DNA of 64,000 nucleotides from a virus: the IMG/VR virus record IMGVR_UViG_3300045988_104111, positions 18,282-82,281 of that record; one strand, 5' to 3'. Below, one piece after another: positions 1,751 through 64,000 of the stretch; the first letter of the stretch is position 1; each line of letters opens with the position of its first letter. A program made the position numbers and the translations under genes. Under the pieces are notes generated by a model. It was not told the DNA's origin, ran no database searches, and saw only the letters and a list, made by a program, of their open reading frames with translations.

Positions 1751-2652
1751 CACACATATTTAATGTGCTAGACTATATCTTATCCCTCATCTTTACATGT
1801 TAGGGCAATCGCACTGCGTAAATTTATTTGGAGTTGCCAGTTTTCATTACTCATCCATACAGGTTGATATTCGTAGCCGAGATATAGCTTATACATCATA
1901 CTATCAACAATATATGGTTTAACCAAATTGATAAACGTTTCATAACTAGACTGCTGAATGCGCAAACGTCTGAATTTATCTCTTTTGATAATTGAACAAT
2001 CCAAATTAAATTTGTCTTTGAGCATTTTGCTCATTGCTTCAACTGTTTTAAGAGAATATCTGTCTGTGCAAATATCAATGCGTCTTGATCTAATATTTCC
2101 TGTTGTTTTACCAACAAGACAAACGTATCCATCACTCATATACCAGTTAGCAAGCCCATTTGGAGTTAGCCAACTTAATGCTTCTTTAGATGCTACTCTA
2201 TGCTTGTAATCATCGTAAAAATGATGATATTTCTTAGCGAAGTACGGATGGGCTTTAATATATAATTCCCAATTATCTTTATAATTACATCCATTTGCCC
2301 ATTTGCCTTGATGGAAATTTACAACAATATCAAAATTAGAACAAGATTCCAAATCAGATTTAATCTTATAGATAAAATCTTTGTTGATGCTGCTCATTCT
2401 TATAGCACGCTTAGTTACACCATTATCAATTCTTGCATCCCCAAAAATAAGTCCTGTTAAATATCCTTTTAACTCTGAACTATTCATACAATTATAGCCT
2501 CCTATAATTTCGTATAATATTAAATTTACATTAGTCGTTGAACCTTCCAACCTATTGTTGACTTGGCTGCTGATCGGCTTTCGCTTTCCAGCAATTCACG
2601 ATTGATTATTTTCATTAGATTTCTCTAAAGCCCTGCACTTTTATCTAGGCTT
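1751..2652 (-). mobile_element. Group I intron in nrdJ, inserted directly after the SNPC active-site codons
   Basis: Exon 1 ends ...aat ccc tgT (U at -1) at 2653, then reads KPR-stop. Removing 1751-2652 (last intron nt G at 1751) restores SNPC|AEYLAG in frame. The intron carries an ORF with its own SD. It shares GAATTGCTGG (2588-2597), ATCAGCAGCCAAG (2562-2574), AAGGTTCAACGACTA (2532-2546) and GATATAGTCTA (1769-1779) with the intron at 58332-58646. Confidence 0.7.
1780..2487 (-). CDS. LAGLIDADG homing endonuclease (intron-encoded)
   Basis: Two LAGLIDADG-type motifs (YLTGLIFGDARIDNG and LANWYMSDGYV). ATG at 2487 is preceded by ataGGAGGctataattgt. The longer TTG start at 2550 in the ORF track would begin inside the intron core. 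Confidence 0.8.
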   Translation of the reverse strand: MNSSELKGYLTGLIFGDARIDNGVTKRAIRMSSINKDFIYKIKSDLESCSNFDIVVNFHQGKWANGCNYKDNWELYIKAHPYFAKKYHHFYDDYKHRVASKEALSWLTPNGLANWYMSDGYVCLVGKTTGNIRSRRIDICTDRYSLKTVEAMSKMLKDKFNLDCSIIKRDKFRRLRIQQSSYETFINLVKPYIVDSMMYKLYLGYEYQPVWMSNENWQLQINLRSAIALTCKDEG

Positions 2653-3474
2653 ACAGGGATTACTACAAACAATTCTTTCTACATACCATGCTGGATTGCG
2701 ATTATTGGCATTATCCTCATAGAATACGCCCGGTTCACCATTATCATATGCCATTTGCATGATTTCATTCCAAATATCACGAGCTGACACTAGCTGAGTA
2801 AATTTCTTATCCCACTTAGATGACGGTAGCTTATTACCCTTCTCGTCATAGATGGGCCAATGCAACCGAATTTGACCATTAGAAATAACACTTCGCATAA
2901 AAGCATCATCTACAACAACAGACAGATTGAAATGATTGAGGCGTCCTTCTGTAGCTGACTTGGCATGGATAAATTCAAGAATATCAGGATGATATACACT
3001 GAGCATACCCATGTTTGCGCCGCGCCGTGAGCCTTGCTGCACTGTAGCTGTCTGAGCATTGAATACATCCATGAAGCTAACCGGTCCAGATGCAATAGCG
3101 TCATTACGGGTTCTATATCCATTAGGAGCTAGATTGCTGAAAGCATATCCAATGCCGCCACCAGCTTTATGTGTCATAGCACCGAGTTTAACAGCATCAA
3201 AAATTTGCTCCATACTGTTACCAACAATGGGCGCGACAAAGCAGTTATTGAGCGTTAACTTTTCGCCAATACCAGCGTTGCTCATGGTGCGTCCAGCTGG
3301 GAAGAAATAGCCCGATGCCATAATATTGTAGAATTTATCTGCCCATGTGCTTGAATTATTATCTTCAGCCGTAGCAATAAAATCAGCTACACGCCATAGC
3401 TGGTCATCATATGACTCGCCGTTCTTTTGGTATCTATCTTTCCAAATAGATTTATATACCTCATTTACAAACAA
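2653..3474 (-). CDS. nrdJ: Class II ribonucleotide reductase, exon 1
   Basis: Translation FFPAGRTMSNAG...NNCFV...THKAGGGIGYAFSNL...GPVSFM...SRRGANMGML...HPDILEFI...VCSNPC. The ORF track continues 4 codons into the intron to a stop at 2641. Confidence 0.8.
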
Positions 3475-3897: not shown

Positions 3898-6800
3898 TCA
3901 CGATTCTGCTGATTTGTCAAGTAGCATTTCACATAATTCAGTATTTCTTTCCTTTTCCTCTTGTACTCTCAATCCCTCTTGAATAGCTACCTCATCTCCA
4001 ATCAATATTAGCCGCTCTTGTGCGCGTGATACGGCTGTATAGCACAAATTACGACTTAGCATCCTTACATGGCTTCTATCAATTACCACAATTACGGCTT
4101 TAGCTTGACAACCCTGTGATGAATGCGTAGAAATTGCATATGCTAATAGTGTATTCTTGATATGAGACTTATCAACTATACAATTACCGCAATCATATCG
4201 CACAATCATATATGGCTCTTTTTCATCTGGTACAATTTCCATTACTGTGCCAATATCGCCATTTGCTACAAAAGCCGTATCATCATCAGCAAGCGGCATA
4301 GCATATTCATTCTTTTTATTGATGACCTTATCTCCCACTTTGAAATAGATAGGCACATTATTGACTGTATGCCCAACCGTGCTTAATTCATTTGGATTGA
4401 ATTTGGATTGAATTGCCGCATTGATAGCCAATGAGCCAACTTCACCCTTATTAAATGGAGATAGAATCAGCACATCATCCTTACTATATCCATCTGTCAA
4501 TAGCCGCGCATATTCTTGTTCAATTTGATTGATTACTAATGTATCAGTTTCAATGAACTTATAATCTGTGAAAGTATCTGTCAGATGGTCATTTACTCCA
4601 TTTCGTACATCAGTAGCTATGGTAATAATGCCAGACGTGTTATATCTGAATACCTTAGTCAAGTTACATACAGGCATAATGTTGCTATCAAGCATATCTT
4701 CAACAATGTTGCCACAAGCGATAGATGCAAGCTGAGATGGGTCGGCTATGAAGATTATTTTGGTACGGTCTGTTACCTTATCAAATAGCATTGATAGCAA
4801 ATGGACACTAATTTGACTGGATTCATCTATGATTAGATAGTCGCCTAAATTCTCACTCATTGTTAGGAACATATGGATAGTAGACGCTTCTTTTTGTGTT
4901 GCTTCTCGTAATTTTTTGCTAGATATTCCTGTCGGGGCAAGTAGAGTATATGTATATCCATTGTCATCTAGCATATTGACAAGTGCTTGCATACTTGTCG
5001 TTTTACCACAGTTGCCAGTAATGAAAATACAATCTTTTCGTCTTAGTACGAGCATATGCGATGGTACTGTAAAGCAATATTTATATCCATCCGTTGTTGG
5101 TACTTGAGTTATGGGCGTTTTAGTACATTTACTTCTATTATCTGAACACAATCCTACTTTTGTTCTGTTAGAAAAATTCACAACATATAAATTAGTTTTT
5201 CTGCTATATTCTTTATTATTTACAATGTGAGTTTCACCAATTCGATTAGAAATGCTTATGGATGCTCTAATTCCTACAGATGCAGTAGCGTATTGAATAA
5301 AATCTGCATCAGATTTAATAGCCGATGAATAAGATTGATATTTTGTATTATTTTTTGTATATCTTATACATCCATCCCAATAAACAACTTCATCTATGAT
5401 TATCTTTAGTTGGTCATTAGAACACCCATACCAATACTCTGTAAATTGCTTTTCTCTCCTTGGCACATAAACGTAATAGTCAGTATATCCTTTTTCTGTA
5501 CTCTCATGTGCTTTATATTCAAGTCCATTTTTATTGAAAAGATAAACTAATCTATCTTTCTTACGTTGCTTTTTTATATGAAAGGTACATCTCGTGCTAT
5601 TTTTATTACCGGCGTTGAAATGCCCATCTGCCAAAACCGCGCACATTAGACGAATTTGCCATTCATTTAAGTCTATACCAGAACCGCCAAAATTAAATGT
5701 TGTGAGAAACCTCCCTTGGAAATTCTTAGTTGACGGAAGGTGCATTTGTTTTAGTTGTTCAATATTACATTCTTTTAATACACCGTCTCTTGTTTCATAT
5801 ATAATTCTATGATCGTCACAGACAGTTTGATTTAATCCTCGGAGCGTTTCAAAGTGCCACAGTGCATCACATGGCTTCTTGATATAAGCAATAGGACTTA
5901 CAAGCTCTGCTGTTCCATCCTCGTTGTACTGAAGCACCATATCACCGTCTTGATAATCAGCAATTCGCTTCCAACCAGTGCCAGTAAAAAACTCAGTATC
6001 ACAATCAACACAACCAGCCGAGCCGGTCAGCATCATCACATCCTGCTTACAAGCCATCTCAAGAATTTGCGCTTGTTCATTTGTTAGCTCTAAGCCGTCT
6101 ACCCTTGTAAACTTCTGCCAATCCATAGGATAATAATGTGGATTGGTTATTTTTTTCTTGATAACATCAGCAATATGCTGTTCGGCGCTATATGTGGCTT
6201 GTAGGGCTGTATTCTGACTAGGCGGGTCATAGTGTACTTGCGCCGATTTCGTCACAACATCGAGGAGATGATGAACACATTGAGGCGTTTTCTTCTTGAC
6301 CATATCAAATAGCTGTTTGGCTTGCATCTTTGTATTGCCGTCCAACTCATTATGCTTCAGAGCATAGATAGTAGCCGCCTCACATCGTTCATAGCTATCT
6401 AGCCATTTTGCCGTTTTCTTGGTTATTGCTCTATCAGCTCTATCAAACGACCATTCAAGCAAGTTAATCATAACAGCGTATGGATTGGCGTTTATATCCT
6501 TGCTAAATTCATATACATTCTTATATGTTGCGGCGATTTTGTTTATATCCTCATCATGCTCAATGCACCAAGAATATGTTTCGCCCATAAATTTAACACG
6601 CTTGTTGATCGTCTTGATTTTTGCAATATATCTTGGCAATAGCACCTTGCCTACGCCTTTAATTTTTTTGTAGTCCAGATTGTCGGCTTCGCCATTCAGT
6701 ACCATACTGACAAAATGAGGATATACGGCATGACATGATTCAGCTTGCCCATTGGTCATTAAGCTGCGTAGCGTCTGTAATTCGGCTTTTTCTGTTAGAT

Positions 6801-7074
6801 TGAATTTGCCATCTTTAGCTACAAATCCAGCAAAACCAATGAATTTATAGCTATATTTATATTTATCATCCTCACATGGCTCAATGATACAATCAATAGA
6901 CTGCCCCATTTTCAAGTCGGCAATCCCAGTTCCTTTTAGGCTGATTGTGCCATATTGAGGATGACGTTCTATTGAGTCATCCTTAGTGCGACATGATATA
7001 ATTGAGAAATTGGATTCAGGATTATTGAATATCATGCGCATTGGGATTATTTTTACTGTTTGCATGGAATACAC
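3898..7074 (-). CDS. RecD-like SF1 DNA helicase, interrupted by an intein
   Basis: After removing residues encoded by 5011-6012, Walker A reads MLTGSAG|CGKTT. Walker B is YLIIDESSQ. The C-terminus ISTHSSQGCQAKAVIVVID...YTAVSRAQERLILIGD is typical of RecD-family helicases. Confidence 0.8.
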   Translation of the reverse strand: MYSMQTVKIIPMRMIFNNPESNFSIISCRTKDDSIERHPQYGTISLKGTGIADLKMGQSIDCIIEPCEDDKYKYSYKFIGFAGFVAKDGKFNLTEKAELQTLRSLMTNGQAESCHAVYPHFVSMVLNGEADNLDYKKIKGVGKVLLPRYIAKIKTINKRVKFMGETYSWCIEHDEDINKIAATYKNVYEFSKDINANPYAVMINLLEWSFDRADRAITKKTAKWLDSYERCEAATIYALKHNELDGNTKMQAKQLFDMVKKKTPQCVHHLLDVVTKSAQVHYDPPSQNTALQATYSAEQHIADVIKKKITNPHYYPMDWQKFTRVDGLELTNEQAQILEMACKQDVMMLTGSAGCVDCDTEFFTGTGWKRIADYQDGDMVLQYNEDGTAELVSPIAYIKKPCDALWHFETLRGLNQTVCDDHRIIYETRDGVLKECNIEQLKQMHLPSTKNFQGRFLTTFNFGGSGIDLNEWQIRLMCAVLADGHFNAGNKNSTRCTFHIKKQRKKDRLVYLFNKNGLEYKAHESTEKGYTDYYVYVPRREKQFTEYWYGCSNDQLKIIIDEVVYWDGCIRYTKNNTKYQSYSSAIKSDADFIQYATASVGIRASISISNRIGETHIVNNKEYSRKTNLYVVNFSNRTKVGLCSDNRSKCTKTPITQVPTTDGYKYCFTVPSHMLVLRRKDCIFITGNCGKTTSMQALVNMLDDNGYTYTLLAPTGISSKKLREATQKEASTIHMFLTMSENLGDYLIIDESSQISVHLLSMLFDKVTDRTKIIFIADPSQLASIACGNIVEDMLDSNIMPVCNLTKVFRYNTSGIITIATDVRNGVNDHLTDTFTDYKFIETDTLVINQIEQEYARLLTDGYSKDDVLILSPFNKGEVGSLAINAAIQSKFNPNELSTVGHTVNNVPIYFKVGDKVINKKNEYAMPLADDDTAFVANGDIGTVMEIVPDEKEPYMIVRYDCGNCIVDKSHIKNTLLAYAISTHSSQGCQAKAVIVVIDRSHVRMLSRNLCYTAVSRAQERLILIGDEVAIQEGLRVQEEKERNTELCEMLLDKSAES
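5011..6012 (-). mobile_element. Intein with LAGLIDADG homing-endonuclease domain, inserted in the helicase Walker A loop
   Basis: 334 codons starting CVDCDTEFFTGTGWKRIADY...VLQYNEDGTAEL...CDDHRIIY...LMCAVLADGHF and ending ...CIFITGN followed by +1 Cys (CGKTT). Precise excision rebuilds a P-loop. Confidence 0.8.
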
Positions 7075-8012: not shown

Positions 8013-8405
8013 TTAATATCCATAATGAACCACAATCAATTTAGCTCTATCAGATCCCCATCGTGTCTTATCAAAGCTATCTAGTACAGCTTTCAACACA
8101 AACAACCGTCTATGATCCTCACCGTTCTCAATCTGATTATTGACCCACTCTTTTACAGTATCAATGTCAGCATACATCATTGGTTCATCATAGGCATCTA
8201 ACAGCTCTGTGTTTTCCCAGTCTTGATTTCTAGGATTATCATGGTCAAATCCAAGGAAATCACCATCTAGCTTTTTGCTGAATAACTCTGCCCATCCAGA
8301 ATCATAACCCATTTTGCACATATCTACTGCGGCAATTACCTCATTGTAGATGTAGGTATTATTGCTAATCCTACTGCAAATATATACCTTGCTTTCGTAA
8401 CCCAT
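8013..8405 (-). CDS. Hypothetical protein
   Basis: ATG at 8405 is preceded by cAGGAGGttgttttata. The longer start at 8447 would read through the promoter -10 at 8438-8443. Confidence 0.55.
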   Translation of the reverse strand: MGYESKVYICSRISNNTYIYNEVIAAVDMCKMGYDSGWAELFSKKLDGDFLGFDHDNPRNQDWENTELLDAYDEPMMYADIDTVKEWVNNQIENGEDHRRLFVLKAVLDSFDKTRWGSDRAKLIVVHYGY

Positions 8406-8437
8406 TATAAAACAACCTCCTGTTCTTTGATAAATCA

Positions 8438-8466
8438 AGTATATCATAGAATCAGGAGGTTGTCAA
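8438..8466 (-). promoter_or_regulatory. Sigma70-type promoter (TTGACA-17-TATACT)
   Basis: Minus strand reads cTTGACAacctcctgattctatgaTATACT. -35 at 8461-8466, -10 at 8438-8443. Confidence 0.7.
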
Positions 8467-8478
8467 GCATTATTTTAA

Positions 8479-8658
8479 TTATTTTTCAATCATTTTCTTT
8501 AATTCTGTAAATAGCTCCTTACCGCAAATAGGACAAGTAAAATTTATGTCAACTACGTATTTTTCATCTACCATTAAGCCGCAATTTTGGCATTTGATAG
8601 GTGCATATTTTAGGGGGCGCTCAGTACGTTTGCGACGATTTCTTTCTGCTCTGCTCAA
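8479..8658 (-). CDS. Small zinc-ribbon protein (TTG start)
   Basis: 59-codon frame LSRAERNRRKRTERPLKYAPIKCQNCGLMVDEKYVVDINFTCPICGKELFTELKKMIEK with two CxxC pairs. The TTG overlaps the stop of the recJ-like gene. It falls below the ORF-track length cutoff. Confidence 0.35.
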   Translation of the reverse strand: MSRAERNRRKRTERPLKYAPIKCQNCGLMVDEKYVVDINFTCPICGKELFTELKKMIEK

Positions 8659-10268
8659 TTAAAATATTCACTCCAATCAATTTCATTTTCATTTGGTTTA
8701 TCAATAATTTCATATCGCTCAATGATTGCTTGTGGCTTAATCTGACCATTATATTCATTCAATCCAAGTGATACTACAACCTCTACGGATTTACCTTGAG
8801 CAGATTCAAATTGACTTACTTCTTCATTACTAACAAAGAATTTAATAAACTCAATGCCATCCTGAACCAGTTTGACAGTAGTTGAACGATTACGATATAC
8901 ATAAATCTGAGGAGATGTTAAAGTACAATGAAATAACGGTTTGTTTACATCCTTGCCCCATAGGATATTATTTTCTACACATAGATTTGTAAGATTGCGT
9001 GTGATATTATTAGGCTTGATCTGAGCCGCCACCTCAATATCTGGCTCTACGTCCAAATCAAGTCCATCTAAGAATCGCGCAAATCGCTTTAGGTTGGACT
9101 TCTTCACGCTGATACCAGCAGCCGCGCTATGCCCTTGACATTTGGCCAATCCTGATTTATTAATAGTCTCAAGCAAATCAATAGGACTGCGCATCGAGCC
9201 AGACCATGTTGTGCTGTTTAGCTCTCTCAGTAGGAACGTGGGCTTGTTGTATTTGCCACAAAATTTATTGGCTACAAGCCCTAAATAAGATTTATTCTCA
9301 GGTTCGCCAAATCCGATAATAACCTTGTGAGACGTATCAAGTCCGTCTGATAGCTTATCTACTACTTTCTTTACCTGATAATCCTGCTTAGATTTTACGG
9401 CTTTCATGGCCTTTACAGCAGCTTCTGGCTCAATCTTGCCAATCAGCGCATCAAAAAATAGCCGTTTAGTAGACTGGTCATCACTACGAGCAAGCGCATT
9501 AGCAAGAGGCGCAATACCAAATGCCACACCCTCTGGATTAACGCCACGATTGCAACAATGCTCTAAGCAGTATTTGATGAATGGATTAGTTGGATTAGTT
9601 AATCCGTCATATACATATTTGCGGTTCTCAGGTGAATGCAAGCTGCAAATATCAGAGATTAGACTAACAGCTACCAAATCCTTGAAAGATTGCTTAAAGT
9701 CAAGCGCACAAGCAAATTTTTCTACAACGCCTGTGCCGCTAATGTCTGTATTGATATTCGGCGCATTGTCGGCTCGATACGGGTTGACTACAACGGCGTG
9801 TTGATTCTTTCGCTCAATGATATGGTGGTCAAGAACAAGACAAGTGCATTTATGCTGTTCCAGCTCTAAACAAGCGTCATTTTCATTAGAGCTTGAATCA
9901 GGCAAGATAAGAAAATCAATATGCGCATCAATAATATCTTGCATCAGGTCTTGTATACCATGCTGCTTTCCAGAATGGAATAGTACTACTGGTTCTTTCT
10001 TTCCAAATTCTTTACATAGCAAATATGCGATTGCCGCTGATAAGTTGCCATCTCCGTCAGAATCGGCAACGATGCCAATTTGAATATCGTCATTAGCATA
10101 CTTGAACATATCAACAGCCACATCCATATTCTTATACATATCAGGCGATTGATATTCAATATTATCTGGATTTAGATATGAGTCAATATCATCTATACCA
10201 CAAGCGGATAAATATGATTGAATGAATGTATTCTCGTCTATATTATTTAATAGTGGTGATATTTTCAA
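8655..10268 (-). CDS. recJ: RecJ-like single-stranded-DNA exonuclease (DHH family)
   Basis: DHH-family motifs VADSDGDGNLSAA, LVLDHH, and DHHA1-like GHSAAAGISV. Confidence 0.75.
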   Translation of the reverse strand: MKISPLLNNIDENTFIQSYLSACGIDDIDSYLNPDNIEYQSPDMYKNMDVAVDMFKYANDDIQIGIVADSDGDGNLSAAIAYLLCKEFGKKEPVVLFHSGKQHGIQDLMQDIIDAHIDFLILPDSSSNENDACLELEQHKCTCLVLDHHIIERKNQHAVVVNPYRADNAPNINTDISGTGVVEKFACALDFKQSFKDLVAVSLISDICSLHSPENRKYVYDGLTNPTNPFIKYCLEHCCNRGVNPEGVAFGIAPLANALARSDDQSTKRLFFDALIGKIEPEAAVKAMKAVKSKQDYQVKKVVDKLSDGLDTSHKVIIGFGEPENKSYLGLVANKFCGKYNKPTFLLRELNSTTWSGSMRSPIDLLETINKSGLAKCQGHSAAAGISVKKSNLKRFARFLDGLDLDVEPDIEVAAQIKPNNITRNLTNLCVENNILWGKDVNKPLFHCTLTSPQIYVYRNRSTTVKLVQDGIEFIKFFVSNEEVSQFESAQGKSVEVVVSLGLNEYNGQIKPQAIIERYEIIDKPNENEIDWSEYFN

Positions 10269-18187: not shown

Positions 18188-18856
18188 TTACTCAGCTTTT
18201 TTAGCTGTAGTAGTAGATTTAGCCTTTGGCGCACTTGCCTTCTTTAGTCCATAATATTCTCTGATTGTGTCATCAACCATCTTTAGATCATTGTCAATCT
18301 CAAGAGAATCAAACATGCCCATTGGTGACTTACATGGATTCGAGCCGTCAGACTGCGTAATAAAATAATGCTTGCGCTCATCTGCTTTACATAGCAGGAC
18401 GATACTAAACAGTCCTTCTACGGTGAGCTGCTGGTCTAGCATCTTACCAAGAGTCTTAACCTTAACCTTGCCATTTTCATCAGTATCAATATGCTGCATG
18501 ATATATACAATCGTATCTGGGCTTGTATCCTCCTGAACAGTACGCAACATTTCCTCGTAGTTCTTAGCCATCGTAGTAAACTTGCCATACCCGACTTCAT
18601 TCACCTTATCAAAGCTTTCAAAAGCCATAAGATACTGAGCATCATCTACGACCCAACTTAGTTTCTTACCGCTACATACTGCGCCTTTGATACTGGTATA
18701 TGTTGCCTTATTCATACTCTGTAGTTTATTTACATTTCTGAATGGTAGCGGCTTAGATGCCACATTTAGGATACCAACATCCTCTTGCTTGAAATTTCTA
18801 AGTGATGCTGATTTACCAGATCCACTTTCACCTAAAATCAAAACTGCTACACCCAT
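18188..18856 (-). CDS. Sak4-like RecA-fold ATPase (single-strand annealing/recombination)
   Basis: Walker A GESGSGKS at residues 9-16. Walker B-like WVVDDAQY. About 220 aa, single domain. Confidence 0.6.
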   Translation of the reverse strand: MGVAVLILGESGSGKSASLRNFKQEDVGILNVASKPLPFRNVNKLQSMNKATYTSIKGAVCSGKKLSWVVDDAQYLMAFESFDKVNEVGYGKFTTMAKNYEEMLRTVQEDTSPDTIVYIMQHIDTDENGKVKVKTLGKMLDQQLTVEGLFSIVLLCKADERKHYFITQSDGSNPCKSPMGMFDSLEIDNDLKMVDDTIREYYGLKKASAPKAKSTTTAKKAE

Positions 18857-26292: not shown

Positions 26293-27132
26293 TTAAAAAT
26301 TCACAACGCTCATAGCGTTTACTGCACGTTGTTCGGTGCGCTTAATATATCTGTTCGCCGTAATAGCAATCGAGCTATGCCCCATCGCCTTACTAATAAC
26401 CTCAATAGGTACATCTGCTTCAGACATCATGGTAGCAAACGTGCGGCGCATGGTATGATTACTAATATGCAATTCTTCCCAATTCTCAATACCAGCTTTT
26501 CTAGCTGCTACCTTGAGCATAGCGCTGGTATTTTTGCCATCCATCTTATTGCCTTGATTGCCAACAAATAAATATTCACAACCATTTTTGCGTTCATTGG
26601 TAATATAGCTATCAATCAGCTTGATCGTCTCATCGGACAAACCAATCAATCTATCCTTATCGCCCTTACCACGAATGACTAGGATATTATTACTGCGGCT
26701 TTCATACTGTTCAAGTGTGATATTGAGCAATTCGTGAATACGCAAGCCAGTTTGCGCAAGCATCATGATAATCGCCTTATTGCGCAAATTGGTTGCGGCA
26801 TTGACCATTGCTCTGACCTGTTCGCCAGTCAGCGCAGATTGTTCACGATTCTTGATAGCAGGAGCTTCAAGAAACTCAGCCGGATTGCGCTGAATGAACT
26901 CATTCCGATATAGGAATTTGAAATATTCACGAACAGCCGATGTTCTCTGAGCAACAGATGCAGAACTGAGATTGTCCATGCTGGACTGCCACATCTCAAG
27001 ATCAATAGCCTTAATTTCAGATTCAGGCTTGTTGACATACTTCAAGCAATTATTAACCGCCTTGGTATATTCTCTGATTGTACCTTCGCTACGGTGCTTT
27101 GCTTTCAAGCTCATAACAAACAGTTCGTTCAT
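26293..27132 (-). CDS. Tyrosine recombinase / integrase (XerC/D-like, short)
   Basis: GLRIHELLN (Arg box), HTMRRTFAT (HxxR), GHSSIAITANRYIK (His...Tyr). ATG at 27132 is preceded by GAAGGAGctgaatgat. Confidence 0.75.
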   Translation of the reverse strand: MNELFVMSLKAKHRSEGTIREYTKAVNNCLKYVNKPESEIKAIDLEMWQSSMDNLSSASVAQRTSAVREYFKFLYRNEFIQRNPAEFLEAPAIKNREQSALTGEQVRAMVNAATNLRNKAIIMMLAQTGLRIHELLNITLEQYESRSNNILVIRGKGDKDRLIGLSDETIKLIDSYITNERKNGCEYLFVGNQGNKMDGKNTSAMLKVAARKAGIENWEELHISNHTMRRTFATMMSEADVPIEVISKAMGHSSIAITANRYIKRTEQRAVNAMSVVNF

Positions 27133-27161
27133 ATCATTCAGCTCCTTCATTTGATGGTTTA

Positions 27162-27190
27162 AGTATAGCACCATAGCGGCGATTTGTCAA
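27162..27190 (-). promoter_or_regulatory. Sigma70-type promoter (TTGACA-17-TATACT)
   Basis: Minus strand reads cTTGACAaatcgccgctatggtgcTATACT. The -35 overlaps the stop of the upstream ORF. Confidence 0.65.
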
Positions 27191-28445: not shown

Positions 28446-28540
28446 TGGTACTCCCGCTCCGACTCGAACGGAGATCGTGCAGCAATCTACTACCTTATGC
28501 CGGGTATAAACCGGTTGTCCTACCATTGAACGACGGGAGC
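28446..28540 (-). tRNA. tRNA with long variable arm, anticodon loop UUUAUAC (anticodon UAU by standard numbering), encoded CCA
   Basis: The minus strand GCUCCCG-UC-GUUC-AAUGGUA-GGAC-A-ACCGG-UUUAUAC-CCGGC-(25-nt variable region)-CUCCG-UUCGAGU-CGGAG-CGGGAGU-A-CCA folds as follows. Acceptor stem of 7 bp with G1-U72. U8 present. GG in the D loop. TPsiC-type loop UUCGA. Confidence 0.7.
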
Positions 28541-47896: not shown

Positions 47897-48046
47897 TATG
47901 ACTTGCCTATGAAGCGGTTGCTATGTTGGTGTGTTACCGTGGAGGTGCTATTAGGGTTGCGTGGTCTCCAAGTTCCAACTTAGGCTTAATCAAAACTATA
48001 AAATAAAAACACTCAAAAATACAAAACAAAGAAAGGAGGGCGAAAT

Positions 48047-57358: not shown

Positions 57359-58176
57359 ACATCGAATACTATAAACATAAATACTTTATTTTCGACAAGC
57401 CATGTATATATACAAAAAATAATAAAGAATTTACATTATATCCAGTTAGTTTAGAAGATTCTGAAGATTTTTTAAAAGCATCTCAAATAATCTCTATAGA
57501 TAAGAATAGTCTATCTTCCGTGGAGATTATTCAGATGACATATTTAAAATTTATATGTTCTGTTTTATTTAGAAATAAAAACAATATCAATGATTTTGTG
57601 ACCATTCTTAGATTGTCATTACATATGTATAATCCAAAAATAGGAATTGATGCAAATAATAAATATGTTGTTTTTGATGAGGATGCTGATATAAGTATAG
57701 CAGAGAGAGAATTTGAAGATATTCGCAGACTAATATTGTATCAAAATATAGTATCTTTTGATGATTCGTATATAGACCCGGATTTAAAAAAGGCTATTGA
57801 TGAAACAAATAAGTTGAGAAATAAAGACATAGATTTTCCAGACATTGAAAGAAAGATGGCTATCATCACGTCTCATTGCGGTATTAGCAAATTAGATCAA
57901 CAAAAAATGACATATAGAGCACATACTATGTTGTGGAATGAAGTATGTAGTGATATTGATTTTTCAACGACTAGAGCTGTAGCTTTGTTCTCTGGCGAAA
58001 AGACAGAACATTGGATATATAAAAAGAAAAAAGACAAAATGGACGATTACATTATTTCTGGAGAAAAATTTGCTGACAAGTTAGGTGCGAATTTTCAAGA
58101 TTTAGAAAATAATGCAAAAGTTGTAAATGTAAATTCATATGAACAAAAATTTAACAAAATGGAGGAAGTTTTATGA
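57352..58176 (+). CDS. Hypothetical protein (markedly more AT-rich than flanking structural genes)
   Basis: ORF track. Confidence 0.5.
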   Translation: MLDIEYYKHKYFIFDKPCIYTKNNKEFTLYPVSLEDSEDFLKASQIISIDKNSLSSVEIIQMTYLKFICSVLFRNKNNINDFVTILRLSLHMYNPKIGIDANNKYVVFDEDADISIAEREFEDIRRLILYQNIVSFDDSYIDPDLKKAIDETNKLRNKDIDFPDIERKMAIITSHCGISKLDQQKMTYRAHTMLWNEVCSDIDFSTTRAVALFSGEKTEHWIYKKKKDKMDDYIISGEKFADKLGANFQDLENNAKVVNVNSYEQKFNKMEEVL

Positions 58177-58331
58177 GCGAAGCATATAAGTATACTGCTG
58201 GCCCAGCAAGAGCATTGTTTTTCTATGGGCAGACTCTAATTGGTGTCGGCAAAACTTTATCCGATACCACGTTCAATAGTGAAATCACCGCTGAAGAGGT
58301 CAGAGGCGGCCCGGGCAATCTACTCTACGGT
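58173..58331 (+). CDS. Major tail protein, exon 1
   Basis: ATGA overlap with the upstream stop. Translation MSEAYKYTAGPARALFFYGQTLIGVGKTLSDTTFNSEITAEEVRGGPGNLLYG, then a stop 1 nt into the intron. Confidence 0.6.
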
Positions 58332-58646
58332 TAAATATCATAATGGAAATGATAAATAGCCCGTTGTAACAGCAATGTTGCAATGTATCTCCTCGAATTG
58401 CTGGGAACTCCTTAGAGCTTTATGTACCAAAGTGTAAAAATCATAAAGATTGGACAATCAGCAGCCAAGGTAGCTACGGCTACAAGGTTCAACGACTATG
58501 CTTGAAATAGCATTAGGGCGCAAGCGATTGGCGCTCGAAGTGGGGAGCGTCCTATATGGATGAATGATATAGTCTATGCTCATGAGAAATCATGAGGCGG
58601 CAAATGTCCGCTATATAGAAGTAGCGTTCTATATAAAATACAACAG
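58332..58646 (+). mobile_element. ORF-less group I intron in the major tail protein gene
   Basis: 315 nt between ggT (58331) and caG (58646). Splicing gives ...GNLLYG|KYFHDSNLTIEITDAMFNLEYVAA in frame. Core motifs are shared with the nrdJ intron: GAATTGCTGG 58395-58404, ATCAGCAGCCAAG 58457-58469, AAGGTTCAACGACTA 58484-58498, GATATAGTCTA 58566-58576. Confidence 0.65.
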
Positions 58647-59579
58647 AAATATTTCCATGATTCTAATCTAACAATCGAAATTACGGACGCAATGTTCAAC
58701 TTAGAATATGTTGCAGCGTCTCTAGGTGTCAATGTTGATCGTGGCGGTCTATCTCTTTATGAAAGTGGTAATTCTGGTGAATCCATTACGACCGCAGGTA
58801 GCCTAACACTTACGAACACAGCCGTTGCATTTGATGGCGCTATGATTGGTTGGTATAAAAAGACTGGCACCAATGAAGATTGGACGGTTGCAACAATTTC
58901 CGGTAACAATATGACCATTCCTGGTTCTAAGAACGGGGACAAGTATTGTGTCAAGTATTTCTATATCAATGAAAACGCAAAGAGCATTACCATTAAGGCG
59001 CAGTATGTACCTAAGGTATTGCATCTAGTTCTAATTAACGATCTATACTCTGGTGATGCAACTAATGTTGCCGCATCTTCTGCTAAGTATGGTCGCTTAA
59101 TTACCGATATTCCTCAGTATCAGCTAAATGGCGGTCAGAATATCGCATGGTCTGCAACTTCTACTGCTACTGTATCTCTAAGCGGTTCCGCGCTTGCTTA
59201 TGATAATAGTGCGTCTTGCGAAGAAGCGCCTATCTACGGTACTATGACTCAGGAAATTTTTGGTACAAAGTGGCAGGATGATGTTGTTGCGATTGCAGTT
59301 GATAACGGCGACGTTGAAATTGGCAAGACCGATTCTGAAACGCTAAGAGTACGTGCTGTATTTGGTGGTAATACTGCATCTAAGATTTATTCTAACGATA
59401 ATTTTACTTTTGCAGTTGAAACTACGCCAGCTTCTACCGCAATCGATACAACCGTTGATGCTACCGGCAAGATTACTTCTGGTAATCAAGCGGGTGTTGC
59501 AGTTGTTTCCGTTACTTTAAAAAATGCACCTGCAAAGGTAGAACCTGCATACGTTAAGGTAACTGTTTCTGACAGTTAA
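58647..59579 (+). CDS. Major tail protein, exon 2 (C-terminal Ig-like domain)
   Basis: The frame is open from 58596. The ORF-track ATG at 58692 is internal. The C-terminus ...AGVAVVSVTLKNAPAKVEPAYVKVTVSD resembles Big_2-type Ig domains. Confidence 0.6.
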   Translation, partial: KYFHDSNLTIEITDAMFNLEYVAASLGVNVDRGGLSLYESGNSGESITTAGSLTLTNTAVAFDGAMIGWYKKTGTNEDWTVATISGNNMTIPGSKNGDKYCVKYFYINENAKSITIKAQYVPKVLHLVLINDLYSGDATNVAASSAKYGRLITDIPQYQLNGGQNIAWSATSTATVSLSGSALAYDNSASCEEAPIYGTMTQEIFGTKWQDDVVAIAVDNGDVEIGKTDSETLRVRAVFGGNTASKIYSNDNFTFAVETTPASTAIDTTVDATGKITSGNQAGVAVVSVTLKNAPAKVEPAYVKVTVSDS

Positions 59580-60314: not shown

Positions 60315-60840
60315 AGCGGAATTATATCAGATGCTAGCCGCACCGTTACAAAAAGCGACGGATTACGTTGTTCAAAAAATATGGAACGAAAATAGAGAAG
60401 TTGTTCGTGTAGTAGTATATGAGGCTTATCATCCAACAGCATACAATAGAAGCGGAGAATTTAAAGAGGCTTGGAATTATACGAGCGGAAGTCATAATTT
60501 GCGAAGAGGCTCTACGGCAACAAGCGAATTTTACTATAGCCCAGAATCAATGAATATGGGTAGCCCATATCATTACGCATCAAATTACGGGCAACATATT
60601 GGTGTTGCTGGGGACTATTTTAATGTAGATGCAAGACAGTATCTAGCTGATATTATTTATGGCGCAATAAAATGGGGTAGTGCATTTGGAGACAATTTCC
60701 CAAAAAAGCGCGACGCATGGACAGCATTGGTAAAACGTATAGGGAAACGTAAAATTAAACAATGGATGAAAGAGGGTATGCAAATGGCGGGATTAAATGT
60801 CAAGATGCATAATACGCCGCTTCACGTTGAGGAAAGTTAA
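60295..60840 (+). CDS. Hypothetical tail-module protein
   Basis: ORF track. Confidence 0.5.
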   Translation: MPTAKSEAELYQMLAAPLQKATDYVVQKIWNENREVVRVVVYEAYHPTAYNRSGEFKEAWNYTSGSHNLRRGSTATSEFYYSPESMNMGSPYHYASNYGQHIGVAGDYFNVDARQYLADIIYGAIKWGSAFGDNFPKKRDAWTALVKRIGKRKIKQWMKEGMQMAGLNVKMHNTPLHVEES

Positions 60841-60841
60841 C

Positions 60842-61354
60842 ATGGTGATATGTGGACTTGATGCTAGCACGTCATCTACTGGATGGTCTATATTTGATGA
60901 CGGGAGGCTCATTGCATATGGTACAATTAAACCCAAAGGGGATGATTGGCATGATAGAGTAATGATGCTTACTATGGAATTATCAAAAATATTTAGACGG
61001 TATGAGCCGACGATTCTCTATGCTGAGGAAGTACCACTAAAGAAAGGCGCGTCAACTATAGAGAAATTGGGTGCGGTACAAGGCGTGATTTTAGCACTAT
61101 GCGCTGGCTTCGAGATAAGGCCATGCTTCTTGATGCCAAGCAAATGGCGTGGCGACCTTAATCTCTTTGACGGCACAAGAGCTGGATTGCAAAGAGATGT
61201 TCTGAAGAAAAAAGCCATAGAGATGGCGAATGAAGAATTTGGACTAAATTTAGCATGGGTTGCCCCAAGTAGCAAAAAAAATGAAGATGATTGCGCAGAG
61301 GGAATCCTTGTGGCCTATTCACAAATCAAAAAAGGGAGTGTGATGAATGGGTAG
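60842..61354 (+). CDS. ruvC: RuvC-like Holliday junction resolvase
   Basis: MVICGLDASTSSTGWSIF (first catalytic Asp context), LYAEEVP (Glu), and C-terminal NEDDCAEGILVAY. Confidence 0.65.
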   Translation: MVICGLDASTSSTGWSIFDDGRLIAYGTIKPKGDDWHDRVMMLTMELSKIFRRYEPTILYAEEVPLKKGASTIEKLGAVQGVILALCAGFEIRPCFLMPSKWRGDLNLFDGTRAGLQRDVLKKKAIEMANEEFGLNLAWVAPSSKKNEDDCAEGILVAYSQIKKGSVMNG

Positions 61355-61724
61355 ACAATCTCAATATTCAATACTCGTAGACGCTGAACTTAATCTAAAA
61401 GATTTAGAGAATCAGCTAAAAGGACATAAATACAAAATAGATGTTGATAGTTCTAGTGCAAAAAGTGGCGCTAAAAATATGAAAGATGCGTCGGCTTCTG
61501 CAAAAGAATTAAAAAACGCTGGAGACGATTTATCATTAACTTATCAAGTAGCTAATGATGTATTCAGAAGAAGTATTCAAGTCATTTCATCTATGGTTGA
61601 ACAAGTTAGAGAACTTGATTCTGCAATAACAGATTTCAAGAAAGTTTCTGACTTGTCCGGTGCGTCATTAGATTCTTATGTAGACAAATTAACAAAGGCA
61701 GGTCAAAGTGTCGCAAGAACCGGT
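61347..61724 (+). CDS. Tail tape measure protein, exon 1
   Basis: ...VDKLTKAGQSVARTG then runs into KPNRSEPVCTDGKCA-stop. The conserved TMP domain continues at 62343. Confidence 0.55.
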
Positions 61725-62061
61725 AAACCAAATCGGTCTGAGCCGGTATGTACAGATGGTAAATGTGCATAGAGAACAGCCCCTAAACCCTTGAAAGCCT
61801 CAAGAGCCTTATCACTACAACATGAGGATGAGATATGCCTGAGTGTGATATGTTCATTAGTAATGAATAATTAGTGCGAAAGCAGAAAGACGATAAGGAT
61901 GATTCCATGGTTGAAAAACCTAAAGAATCCATCATAAATAATGTATGATAAAAGGGCAGATTGGGCGCGAAGCCGTGATGAGCGGTGTGTCAATCGAATA
62001 TACAGGGCGACCCTCCAAACATATAGGGTGAAGAAATATTCAGGAAGGGCTTGAAAACCCC

Positions 62062-62090
62062 TTGACAAATTATTCAATATGTGCTATAGT
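62062..62090 (+). promoter_or_regulatory. Sigma70-type promoter inside TMP intron 1 (TTGACA-17-TATAGT)
   Basis: cTTGACAaattattcaatatgtgcTATAGT, then AAAGGAGagatatcacATG. Confidence 0.6.
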
Positions 62091-62122
62091 GGTATTACAA
62101 AATAGCAAAGGAGAGATATCAC

Positions 62123-62332
62123 ATGACCATTCTTATTTTAGGCGTTGTTTTTTGGGCGGTATGCAAGATGTTTGGTTTTGGATTGAGATGGCTTATTGGT
62201 GTTCCTCTCGATGAAAATCTTGAGAAATTAACAAAGGAATACGATAAGCATAGTCCAGAATATTATCAAGAGCTACAGAGACAGTCCGAAGAAGAACAGA
62301 AGCAATATGATGATTGGGGATTTATTGAATAA
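62123..62332 (+). CDS. 69-aa membrane-anchored acidic protein encoded within TMP intron 1
   Basis: MTILILGVVFWAVCKMFGFGLRWLIGV (TM segment) followed by an acidic tail ...QRQSEEEQKQYDDWGFIE. Strong SD. No homing-endonuclease motif. Confidence 0.55.
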   Translation: MTILILGVVFWAVCKMFGFGLRWLIGVPLDENLEKLTKEYDKHSPEYYQELQRQSEEEQKQYDDWGFIE

Positions 62333-62342
62333 TTTGTAACTG

Positions 62343-62697
62343 TCAGACATGGTGTCTGCTGCGGCACAATTTAGAAAATCTGGATTTAATGACCAAGATG
62401 CAGCATCGTTGGCGACCGTTGCTGCAATGTACCAAAACGTAGCTGATACGGCTATTTCAGCAGAAGATGCGGCCGCATCTATTACATCTCAGATTCGTGC
62501 ATTTGGCGAAGATGCTAGTTTTGCTACAGAAGTAATTGACGCATATAATGAAGTGGCAAACAATTTTAGTGTAGGCACTAACGATTTATCACAAGCAATG
62601 GAAATTGCATCTAGTGGTATGGCTACTTATGGCAATGAATTTTCTGAAATCATCGGATTGGTCACAGCTGGTACAGAAATTATGACCGGACGCAGCT
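62343..62697 (+). CDS. Tail tape measure protein, exon 2
   Basis: SDMVSAAAQFRKSGFNDQDAASLATVAAMYQNVADTAISAEDAAASITSQIRAFGED...GLVTAGTEIMTG. The frame then hits a stop at 62715-62717 inside the next intron. The 3' boundary is approximate. Confidence 0.55.
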
Positions 62698-64000
62698 TAA
62701 TTTGTGGGTTGCGGTAAAAATGTTTTGAATTGACTGGAACGTCTTGCAATACTTTATCTACTAAACCACAATAGTAATATGTGTGGCGGCAAGGAGTAAT
62801 GACCAAGGTATAGTAAAAAAGATAAAGACATCGAGAAAACCAGCATCCAAGCCTCCTAAGAGCAAGGAGGAAGGTTCAACGACCATCCTATATAGGATAG
62901 GCGCAAGTGCGCCGAAGCGGAACAGACTGCATATGTGCGGTCAAGATATGGTCTGAACATTATATGAAAATATAAGGAGTTTAATAAAGTGAAAAAAATA
63001 TCAGAAGAATATGTAAAACAATATCTAATAGACAATGGTGGATGGCAATTGTTATCTCATTATACTGGGACACATGATAATCTAACTATTGAGCGAGATG
63101 GCTATAAATCGATCACTAGCTTTACTAGTTTTAAAAGTGGACATAAGCCAATTATATTTGGGGTTAAAAATCCATTCTACAAAAACAACATTTGTGAGTT
63201 GATATATCGAAAAGACGAACGTGTGCAATTTGTAGATGCCAAATGTGTTAAAAAGAGCGGCAAACATCGAATTGTAGTTGATATGATTGACGCGAATGAA
63301 CATTCATTTTCTAAAACAATAGAACACATATTAAATAATGAAGAATGTTTGTGTTGTAAAGAATGTGCTAGAAAAATACAAACAAAAAGGCATAGAAAAT
63401 CATTTACAAATAAATGGATTAGCAGAATAGATATTTCGCGGTATTCTATTATTAGCGAGATTGATTATTTAACTGCGGATTCATTCATTGATATAGAAGA
63501 TGTTAAAACGGGATATCGGATTCATACGAATATACGCGCTGCATCTAAAAATCCACAAGCATTTAATGTGTTTTCTAATGAAAAATTCTTTCTTTATAAT
63601 TTATCTATATACGGGAAAGATAATGGTTTATCATCTACTCCCGTTTCTATTGTAGATAAGTCAGCAACTCATACGAAAGTGTTATTTCGTTGTTCATGTG
63701 GAAATGAATTTGTAAGAAGTGTTTATAAGTGGATGGACGGAAGAGATAGGTGTGCAACTTGTTCACAAACACAGTCGTCGTATGAAAAGAGGTTTGAGGA
63801 ATATTTGATACAAAATAGTATTGAATATAAATCCGAGTATAGATTTAATGCTTGTAAAGACATTAAACCATTGCCATTTGATTTTTACTTGCCGCAATAC
63901 GATTGTTTAATTGAGATTGACGGGATACAGCACTTTGAGCCTATTGCGTTTAGTGGGGACAAAAAGGACGCAGAAAGACGATTTGAGTTACAAAAAAAAC
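62698..64000 (+). mobile_element. Putative group I intron 2 in the tape measure gene (continues past window end)
   Basis: Shares GAATTGACTGG (62727-62737), CCAGCATCCAAG (62840-62851) and AAGGTTCAACGAC (62871-62883) with the nrdJ and tail introns. Contains an endonuclease-like ORF. The 5' boundary is approximate. Confidence 0.5.
62989..64000 (+). CDS. Intron-encoded endonuclease-like protein with C-terminal PD-(D/E)xK / Vsr-like motif (partial)
   Basis: GTG at 62989 lies 9 nt after AAGGAG. The frame is open to the window end. Cys clusters are present (CLCCKEC, CSCGN...CATC), and PFDFYLPQYDCLIEIDGIQHF is typical of restriction-endonuclease-like folds. Confidence 0.55.
   Translation, partial: MKKISEEYVKQYLIDNGGWQLLSHYTGTHDNLTIERDGYKSITSFTSFKSGHKPIIFGVKNPFYKNNICELIYRKDERVQFVDAKCVKKSGKHRIVVDMIDANEHSFSKTIEHILNNEECLCCKECARKIQTKRHRKSFTNKWISRIDISRYSIISEIDYLTADSFIDIEDVKTGYRIHTNIRAASKNPQAFNVFSNEKFFLYNLSIYGKDNGLSSTPVSIVDKSATHTKVLFRCSCGNEFVRSVYKWMDGRDRCATCSQTQSSYEKRFEEYLIQNSIEYKSEYRFNACKDIKPLPFDFYLPQYDCLIEIDGIQHFEPIAFSGDKKDAERRFELQKK

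Follow-up and report, generated by a model that had tools for sequence, protein, structure and literature searches.

The stretch of viral DNA analysed here (the window, 64,000 nucleotides; positions 18,282 to 82,281 of IMG/VR record IMGVR_UViG_3300045988_104111) carries on its plus strand a gene for a tape-measure protein (TMP) that is interrupted by a 618-nt insert at 61725-62342. An earlier note on this DNA had read the insert as an intron that lacks a homing endonuclease and instead holds a membrane-protein gene with a sigma70-type promoter. This reading is supported by the colinearity of the gene with uninterrupted relatives, by a covarying RNA fold, by conservation of the promoter elements and by selection on the open reading frame (ORF). 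The parts of the interrupted gene are as follows.

61347-61724 (+): TMP exon 1, 126 codons, ending VARTG; ACCGGU (61719-61724) is the exon strand of the predicted helix P1
61725-62342 (+): intron, 618 nt, starting AAACC and ending AACUG, with the terminal G at 62342
62343-62687 (+): TMP exon 2, starting SDMVSAAAQFRKSGF; the opening 5 nt, UCAGA, form the predicted helix P10 with the guide

The exon 1 frame ends in KAGQSVARTG, with the last codon, GGT, at 61722-61724, and meets a stop 16 codons farther on. The exon 2 frame restarts at 62343 with TCA GAC ATG GTG (SDMV) and ends at 62687, where the next intron, a group I intron recognised by Rfam, begins. When the exons were joined, the product matched PF10145 of Pfam over residues 114-237 and phrog_4211 (tape measure) over residues 48-235, both unbroken across the junction at residue 126/127, and residues 5-240 aligned in one tblastn piece to uninterrupted TMP genes of Enterocloster phages. 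In a junction-centred protein search, uninterrupted relatives that are 55-75% identical read VARTG-SEMV without gap or insertion; the DNA of one of them (L030) reads ACTGGT/TCAGAA, the slash marking the junction. Coding sequence occupying the interval in homologous TMPs, which the earlier note had named as the outcome that would speak against an intron, was not found: TMPs of insert-free relatives are colinear across it with zero extra residues. The exon frames and the gap-free relatives thus agree on the break after KAGQSVARTG and the resumption 618 nt later, confirming by comparison that the insert interrupts the TMP gene exactly between the codons for ARTG and SDMV. The predicted ligated junction joins the exon 1 end AGAACCGGT to the exon 2 start TCAGACATGG (also given as TCAGACATGGTG).

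Among the 120 best matches listed, each relative above ~75% identity spans one side of the junction only, indicating that the interruption appears fixed in the close clade. The intron-less alleles were obtained through protein searches. An exact-pattern scan of viral contigs for the intron-less junction returned none, with a pattern that demanded ACCGG where the intron-less allele has ACTGG, and megablast of 61300-64000 gave no match among GenBank phages.

Related introns were collected through homologues of the intron ORF, relatives of the exon protein and a conserved 20-mer, giving 33 unique introns, all at the same codon. From their alignment, which is rich in compensatory change, a structure with the helix order of group I introns was derived and tested on 22 distinct introns. 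Its elements are listed below, with pair changes counted in these introns; helix names within the P4 domain are provisional.

61737-61747 (+): internal guide sequence; UCUGA (61737-61741) forms P10 with UCAGA (62343-62347), GCCGGU (61742-61747) forms P1 with ACCGGU
61748-61770 (+): P2 hairpin, 7 bp, conserved 9-nt loop GAUGGUAAA; 4 of 7 pairs changed on both sides
61779-61782 (+): P3 5' strand GCCC, pairing with GGGC (62005-62008) in a pseudoknot with P7; 100% paired, with two-sided changes at 3 of 4 pairs
61788-61956 (+): P4 (61788-61792 with 61952-61956), which never covaries, and the peripheral domain it encloses
61807-61813 with 61892-61898 (+): P5, inside P4; 5 of 7 pairs changed on both sides
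61820-61846 (+): P5a, inside P4
61875-61884 (+): GAAA-capped hairpin, inside P4
61901-61929 (+): helix B with a GAAA loop, inside P4; 5 of 5 pairs changed on both sides
61931-61949 (+): helix C, inside P4
61964-61991 (+): P6/P6a, outer 5 bp and inner 4 bp, conserved loop UGAUGAG; 2 of 4 P6a pairs have two-sided changes, seen in 10 of 22 sequences
61996-62041 (+): catalytic-core region with P7, the P3 3' strand, P8 and J8/7
61996-62001 with 62036-62041 (+): P7, GAAUAU with AUAUUC; an A-U pair becomes G-C or U-A in 6 sequences
62005-62008 (+): P3 3' strand
62010-62029 (+): P8 hairpin; 2 pairs changed on both sides
62030-62035 (+): J8/7, GAAGAA
62045-62063 (+): P9 hairpin, 5 bp; 5 of 5 pairs changed on both sides; its 3' strand abuts the -35 hexamer of the predicted promoter and shares 2 nt with its start

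The comparison shows that the group I core order P3-P4-P5-P6-P7-P3'-P8-P7', with the P3/P7 pseudoknot, is present in the insert, and that P3, P7, P8, P6a and P5 covary and are 93-100% paired. Across the 22 introns 95.3% of cells were paired in the proposed fold versus 34-44% when partners were slid by 1-3 columns, 37 of 90 pairs had changed on both sides versus 2-7 with slid partners, and none of 500 shuffles matched any of five fold measures. P1 has 6 bp, with a U61724.G61742 wobble at the splice site, and reaches 95.5% pairing. Two of its pairs show changes on both sides, and it covaries with the exon through a compensatory C-G to U-A change in one relative (L038). The splice-site pair is U.G in 19 variants, C-G in two and G-C in one, where a change in the guide compensates. 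P10 is paired in 100% of the introns and invariant apart from one G.U, and the terminal G of the intron is kept in all 33 unique introns. The opening pairs of P7, G-C (61996/62041) and A-U (61997/62040), are compatible with a guanosine-binding site.

Two other pairings were tried in this part and rejected. For a hairpin CUUGA/UCAAG (61790-61804), position 61801 proved to be freely C, U, G or A, and at a hammerhead-like CUGAUGA the window has GUGAUGAG, which is the conserved loop of a covarying hairpin. No second copy of the core was found in the window by nhmmer with a core profile.

The fold also bears on whether the insert is an intergenic accessory gene, or moron, with TMP function supplied by separate polypeptides, namely a 141-aa exon 1 ORF ending at 61772 and an ORF starting at ATG 62349. 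Both flanking pieces are indeed open ORFs, the ATG lies 7 nt into exon 2 and 16 nt past the stop codon of the insert's own ORF, and Rfam detects no intron in the insert. Against such an arrangement, the 340 nt 5' of the promoter are highly structured, with some of the 37 compensatory pairs involving both exon edges, and comparison with intact homologues places the break with single-codon precision. The methionine at 62349 is invariant in uninterrupted TMPs as well, which points to protein conservation and not to a start codon; it has no Shine-Dalgarno site before it; and the same gene holds another, Rfam-recognised intron. Separate polypeptides are therefore regarded as highly improbable.

The 3' part of the intron contains the following features, which coincide with the TTGACA-17-TATAGT, the AAAGGAG and the 69-aa ORF with one N-terminal transmembrane (TM) helix and an acidic tail that the earlier note had listed.

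62062-62090 (+): predicted sigma70/sigmaA-type promoter, TTGACA (62062-62067), 17-nt spacer, TG (62082-62083), TATAGT (62085-62090)
62065-62079 (+): 5' strand ACAAAUUAUUCAAUA of a helix closing the cargo ('P9.1'); as DNA, the last 3 nt of the -35 hexamer and 12 spacer nt
62107-62113 (+): Shine-Dalgarno sequence AAAGGAG, 9 nt upstream of ATG 62123
62123-62332 (+): 69-aa cargo ORF, TM helix at about residues 2-24, acidic helical tail, C-terminal motif Q..YD.WG.I
62323-62337 (+): 3' strand UAUUGAAUAAUUUGU of the closing helix; it spans 7 nt at the end of the ORF's final three codons, the stop codon and 5 nt past it

The site at 62062-62090 has every feature of an extended -10 promoter (TTGACA, 17 ± 1 nt, TG at -15/-14, TAnnnT) and is the sole 11/12 match within 60800-64000. 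The scan of that region returned 10 promoter-like sites versus 12.0 ± 3.6 in shuffles, so the lone match by itself proves little. The stronger evidence is comparative: all 33 unique introns retain TTGACA, the 17-nt spacing, TG and TAT..T, while spacer and flanks vary by lineage. Within the -10 hexamer, positions 1-3 and 6 are kept and only positions 4-5 vary, one G-to-A change moving toward TATAAT. A candidate in which TATAGT acted as J8/7-P7', paired with CACUA (61814-61818), was discarded; relatives have TATAAT or TATTGT, so the pairing is lost but the -10 is kept. Host RNA polymerase would be expected to fire at 62062-62090, with a predicted transcription start near 62097. Such a transcript would begin downstream of the ribozyme and of 62065-62079, the first strand of the closing helix, and thus be an ordinary mRNA.

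The promoter region is also part of a long-range RNA pairing. The sequence ACAAAUUAUUCAAUA (62065-62079) is perfectly complementary to UAUUGAAUAAUUUGU in the intron tail (62323-62337), giving a helix of 15 bp and -16 kcal/mol that would loop out the whole cargo and bring the AACUG 3' end beside P9. Every lineage builds its own closing helix from its own sequences: cognate duplexes reach -10 to -17 kcal/mol, shuffled tails -4 to -5 kcal/mol (0-3 of 200 as good as the cognate helix), and non-cognate partners of three divergent lineages -3 to -9 kcal/mol. Column-wise pairing is weaker (73%) because the register shifts between lineages. A helix of this kind would account for the ribozyme's tolerance of cargos from 238 to 700 nt long, counted from the -10 end, and for the conserved flanks of the cassette. 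A 7-bp closure considered for the same task, UUACAAA (62094-62100) with UUUGUAA (62333-62339), was superseded by the 15-bp promoter-spacer helix, which is conserved in all lineages.

This overlap raises the question of whether the apparent promoter is only a structural RNA strand in a group I-type intron, with the ORF translated, if ever, from the pre-mRNA or the excised intron. In every lineage the -35 and spacer do lie within or next to the 5' helix strand, so that pairing contributes to their conservation, and the number of promoter sites in the scan is not above chance. However, the TG and the -10 lie outside the helix and are nevertheless kept at exactly 17 nt from TTGACA in all 33 introns, with variation confined to the two positions named above and heading toward consensus; their conservation is explained by promoter function and not by RNA structure. 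Moreover, three divergent lineages differ in helix sequence and yet share the promoter geometry. A purely structural role for these elements is thus unlikely.

The cargo ORF is under purifying selection and evolves as a protein, as supported by dN/dS values of 0.09-0.25 in comparisons with four relatives, wherever dS was unsaturated. Kyte-Doolittle hydropathy peaks at 2.19 over residues 3-21, and residues 28-69, the tail, hold 13 acidic and 5 basic residues. Hydropathy and an all-helical AlphaFold model (pLDDT 68) agree on a TM helix at about residues 2-24 followed by two helices, and the charge distribution in several paralogues suggests an N-out/C-in topology. As the earlier note had said of nuclease motifs, none was recognised: Pfam, PHROG, PADLOC and NCBIfam gave no nuclease match, and no significant match to a LAGLIDADG, GIY-YIG, HNH, His-Cys or PD-(D/E)XK homing endonuclease was obtained for the 69-aa protein in all four collections or for 11 cargo relatives in PADLOC and NCBIfam. 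No family was found for the window ORF in Pfam or PHROGs, or for any of these 12 cargo proteins in PADLOC; NCBIfam gave only weak, sub-threshold matches to unrelated membrane proteins for the 12, and tblastn with the 69-aa ORF only a match at E=2. An exhaustive profile search of 1.84 billion representatives recovered 12 clusters at 50% identity, all of 32-123 aa. Wherever the context of these proteins was looked up they lay in this intron, and no relatives were found outside it.

In the assembly collection, 275 blocks index the identical 69-aa ORF, on contigs that reach the 50-200 kb class. In all 33 unique introns the promoter is followed by one to three small ORFs, each preceded by a Shine-Dalgarno sequence and opening with a hydrophobic helix. 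The motif Q..YD(N)(D/E)WG(F/Y)I is common to the protein type of the window and most other cargos; a second cargo protein type ends in NEWGLDDDWRWGKL. The intron cores are 88-95% identical to that of the window and the cargos 31-66%; since cargos differ between introns whose cores are ~90% identical, the comparison shows that the cargo is exchanged as a cassette.

For the function of the protein, the leading guess, a tentative one, is an early membrane factor, e.g. one for superinfection immunity or another phage-phage or phage-host interaction at the membrane. Alternatively, the cargo might serve to stabilise the intron, as the small membrane toxin of an addiction module or type I toxin-antitoxin system, without benefit to the phage. 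Bacillus prophages carry such toxins (bsrG, and yonT in SPbeta), and the small size, hydrophobic N-terminus, charged tail and strong predicted promoter would suit one. On the other hand, no conserved antisense promoter or RNA was found, the sole minus-strand site being a 9/12 match (62269-62241); the cargo sequence is swapped between introns; and type I toxins do not typically have a conserved soluble motif at the C-terminus or as many as three paralogues in tandem. An addiction toxin, lacking an antisense partner and with a conserved soluble tail to account for, is much less likely than an early membrane factor, and was rated decidedly unlikely.

Taken as a whole, the insert is quite probably a group I-type self-splicing TMP intron with its own sigmaA-type promoter and membrane-protein gene, as judged from comparative sequence evidence. 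In the late pre-mRNA, the 5' 340 nt would fold as the ribozyme and the guide (61737-61747) would align both exons through P1 and P10, and splicing after U61724 and G62342 would join ARTG to SDMV. The 3' 280 nt would form a non-ribozyme cargo loop, shut by the 15-bp helix 62065-62079/62323-62337, which would return the 3' splice site to the core. This loop would be an expression unit of its own, with sigmaA-type promoter, Shine-Dalgarno sequence and a 69-aa single-pass membrane protein; the DNA of its -35 and spacer would double as one strand of the closing helix, and host RNA polymerase would transcribe the cargo independently of the late operon. Between similar introns the cassette is swapped, carrying one to three paralogous small membrane-protein genes. 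The cargo intron has no endonuclease of its own and may spread by co-conversion with the endonuclease-bearing intron ~345 nt downstream.

Several observations weigh against this reading. The nucleotide before the 5' splice site is C in two relatives (L020, L026) and G in another (L029), one contig each, and not the canonical U; in L029 the guide G is changed to C, keeping the splice-site pair. Either these copies splice poorly or the ribozyme tolerates a Watson-Crick pair at the cleavage site. The region within P4 is atypical, with three radiating helices instead of a single P5 stack; covariation is absent from P4 and P10; and there is little support for P9.0. The AlphaFold model of the protein is weak, and no terminator was found after the 69-aa ORF, so that the cargo is not a closed transcription unit and read-through into exon 2 is expected. 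Finally, no Rfam model matched the insert: RF00028 gave no match at E<=10 on the insert alone or on compact relatives, and none here at the gathering threshold in the scan of the window, although it does detect two other introns of the window. It also missed a canonical-looking intron at 58335-58691 at E<=0.01, indicating that the model is not exhaustive. The resemblance of UGAAGAAAUAUUC to an S element and of GUCAAUCGAAUAUACA to an R element was seen by eye only. The caution of the earlier note on ribozyme class was therefore justified; the covariance scan it proposed came back blank, and the group I-type fold emerged from comparative covariation instead. Because the insert has the architecture of a group I intron and is not recognised by the Rfam sequence model, it is called group I-type here, without a subgroup.

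The source of the window is a roughly 90-kb SPbeta-like gut siphophage, with structural genes of the YonB, YomX, YomW and YomU families, and its closest cultured relatives are ~100-kb Enterocloster phages. The intron-bearing contigs from metagenome-assembled genomes are all of phage size and carry mixed bin labels (Oscillospiraceae, Bacteroidales and others), which point to no single host. A XerD-type tyrosine recombinase is encoded at 26293-27174. PMBT24, the closest cultured relative, is reported to be virulent yet encodes a XerD-type recombinase (PMC11035940), so the recombinase of the window does not establish lysogeny. Expression of the cargo from a prophage, as the earlier note had proposed, finds no support in that form, with the nearest cultured relative being virulent (PMC11035940); the promoter may simply give early transcription by host RNA polymerase.

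Other introns and insertions were observed in the window and its relatives. The second TMP intron scores 63 bits with Rfam Intron_gpI at 62688-62976 (+), within the region 62688-64000; the long ORF that follows runs off the window, matches phrog_559 (annotated HNH endonuclease) and has a C-terminal FDFYLP...IEIDGIQH that resembles PD-(D/E)XK/DUF559 nucleases. The TMP introns carried differ among relatives. Some near-identical phages (L008/L010 at ~8250-9600, and L022-L025) have an extra intron in exon 1 after about codon 97 (DFK/KVSDL) with a 302-aa CapR/DUF723-like endonuclease ORF, the presence of which varies among relatives; in contrast, the site of the cargo intron is interrupted in all relatives above ~75% identity among the matches listed. 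In a cultured relative, Enterocloster phage CB457P1 (L073, OP172753.1), the TMP is split at a different site by ~1.1 kb (~5650-6770). That insert holds a 157-aa ORF with CxxC...CxxC motifs and no Pfam match, preceded by TTGACA-17-TATATT with TG (~5769-5797), and host-type promoters within TMP inserts may be common in this phage group.

The tail-tube (YomU-like) gene is split into 58173-58334 and 58692-59579 by an ORF-less insert of ~357 nt at 58335-58691 (+) with textbook group I R/S elements, AAGGUUCAACGACUAUG ... GAUAUAGUCUAUG; whole-window Rfam at E<=0.01 was blank for it. Relatives have either an intact gene at this site, with a 364-aa product (L005), or an endonuclease ORF of DUF7487/DUF559 type there. 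The gene for the large subunit of ribonucleotide reductase, 1780-3474 (-), contains a group I intron (Rfam, 41.5 bits at 2499-2662) with a LAGLIDADG_2 endonuclease ORF at 1780-2550. A RecD2-like helicase of 1058 aa, 3898-7074 (-), has a weak LAGLIDADG_3 match at residues 567-620, between its N-terminal and AAA domains, which may be an intein or an endonuclease insertion. Among RNA features, the variable region of a 92-nt tRNA at 28449-28540 (-), which scores 45.8 bits, is enlarged by an insertion of 22 nt, and 47904-48017 (+) falls just short of the threshold for the 'drum' sRNA family, with 40.1 bits versus a gathering score of 43.

The self-splicing T4 introns td, nrdB and sunY/nrdD are reported, in the work of Shub, Gott, Belfort and colleagues in 1988, to loop an ORF with its own internal promoter from a peripheral helix (P9.1 in sunY). 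The cargo intron resembles them in its place in an essential phage gene, in the looped-out ORF and in a predicted internal promoter separate from that of the host gene. It differs in that the T4 ORFs encode the homing endonucleases I-TevI, II and III under T4 middle/late promoters, whereas here a 69-aa membrane protein follows a host sigmaA-type extended -10 promoter, and in that its core is not of IA2 type and not recognised by RF00028.

Group I introns also lie in the TMP genes of Bacillus cereus-group prophages and other Firmicute phages, with several insertion sites per gene (PMC2504315). The second TMP intron of the window, at 62688, is of this same ordinary kind. Those Firmicute introns are ORF-less or carry a homing endonuclease, and none has been reported with a promoter and a membrane-protein gene. 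The cassette is also like the morons of lambda/HK97-type phages, accessory genes with their own promoter in the late operon, expressible while late genes are silent. Classical morons, however, are intergenic and usually have a terminator at their end; the cassette lies within coding sequence, without a terminator, and splicing would be needed to keep the host gene intact.

T4 Imm, HK97 gp15 and lactococcal Sie2009 are small exclusion or immunity proteins, anchored by an N-terminal TM helix and made early or constitutively, and two of them, HK97 gp15 and Sie2009, act during DNA injection, a step in which the TMP of the incoming phage takes part. The 69-aa protein has no sequence or profile similarity to superinfection-exclusion proteins, and its link to the TMP is one of genomic position only. 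A host-useful non-nuclease gene in the loop of a group I intron is known from rps3 in the fungal mitochondrial LSU rRNA. Unlike the present case, that intron is organellar, and the one gene it holds, a conserved housekeeping gene, lacks its own promoter and is not exchanged as a cassette.

A broader proposal, which we consider rather doubtful, is that the intron is a safe-harbour expression site in an essential late gene, its DNA read both as promoter and as helix strand. The exchangeable membrane proteins, acting early or in a carrier state, would block DNA entry of competing phages with a specificity linked to the TMP allele, and the intron would be maintained not by homing of its own but through a beneficial cargo or by hitch-hiking with the endonuclease intron ~345 nt downstream.

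To our knowledge, bacterial and phage group I introns have been viewed as empty ribozymes or as vehicles of homing endonucleases. Internal promoters and P9.1-looped ORFs are reportedly already known from T4. TMP-gene introns are known as well (PMC2504315). Literature searches aimed at intron cargo consisting of a promoter and a membrane-protein gene found no description. What is new is an exchangeable, promoter-driven membrane-protein cassette in place of the nuclease, a promoter sequence doubling as a ribozyme helix strand, and a core unseen by Rfam.

The finding describes a widespread gut-phage intron lineage whose sole cargo is a promoter-driven cassette of small membrane proteins swapped between introns, and it marks a ribozyme lineage that escapes the standard Rfam model. 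If the predicted splicing and promoter activity are true, introns can be insertion-tolerant sites for accessory genes inside essential genes, and the overlap of -35, spacer and closing helix would be a natural case in which selection acts on a single sequence in two roles, as a promoter in DNA and as a structural element in RNA. The cargo would then represent a previously undescribed family of phage membrane proteins, sited in the gene for the DNA-injection conduit and testable for a part in phage-phage competition.

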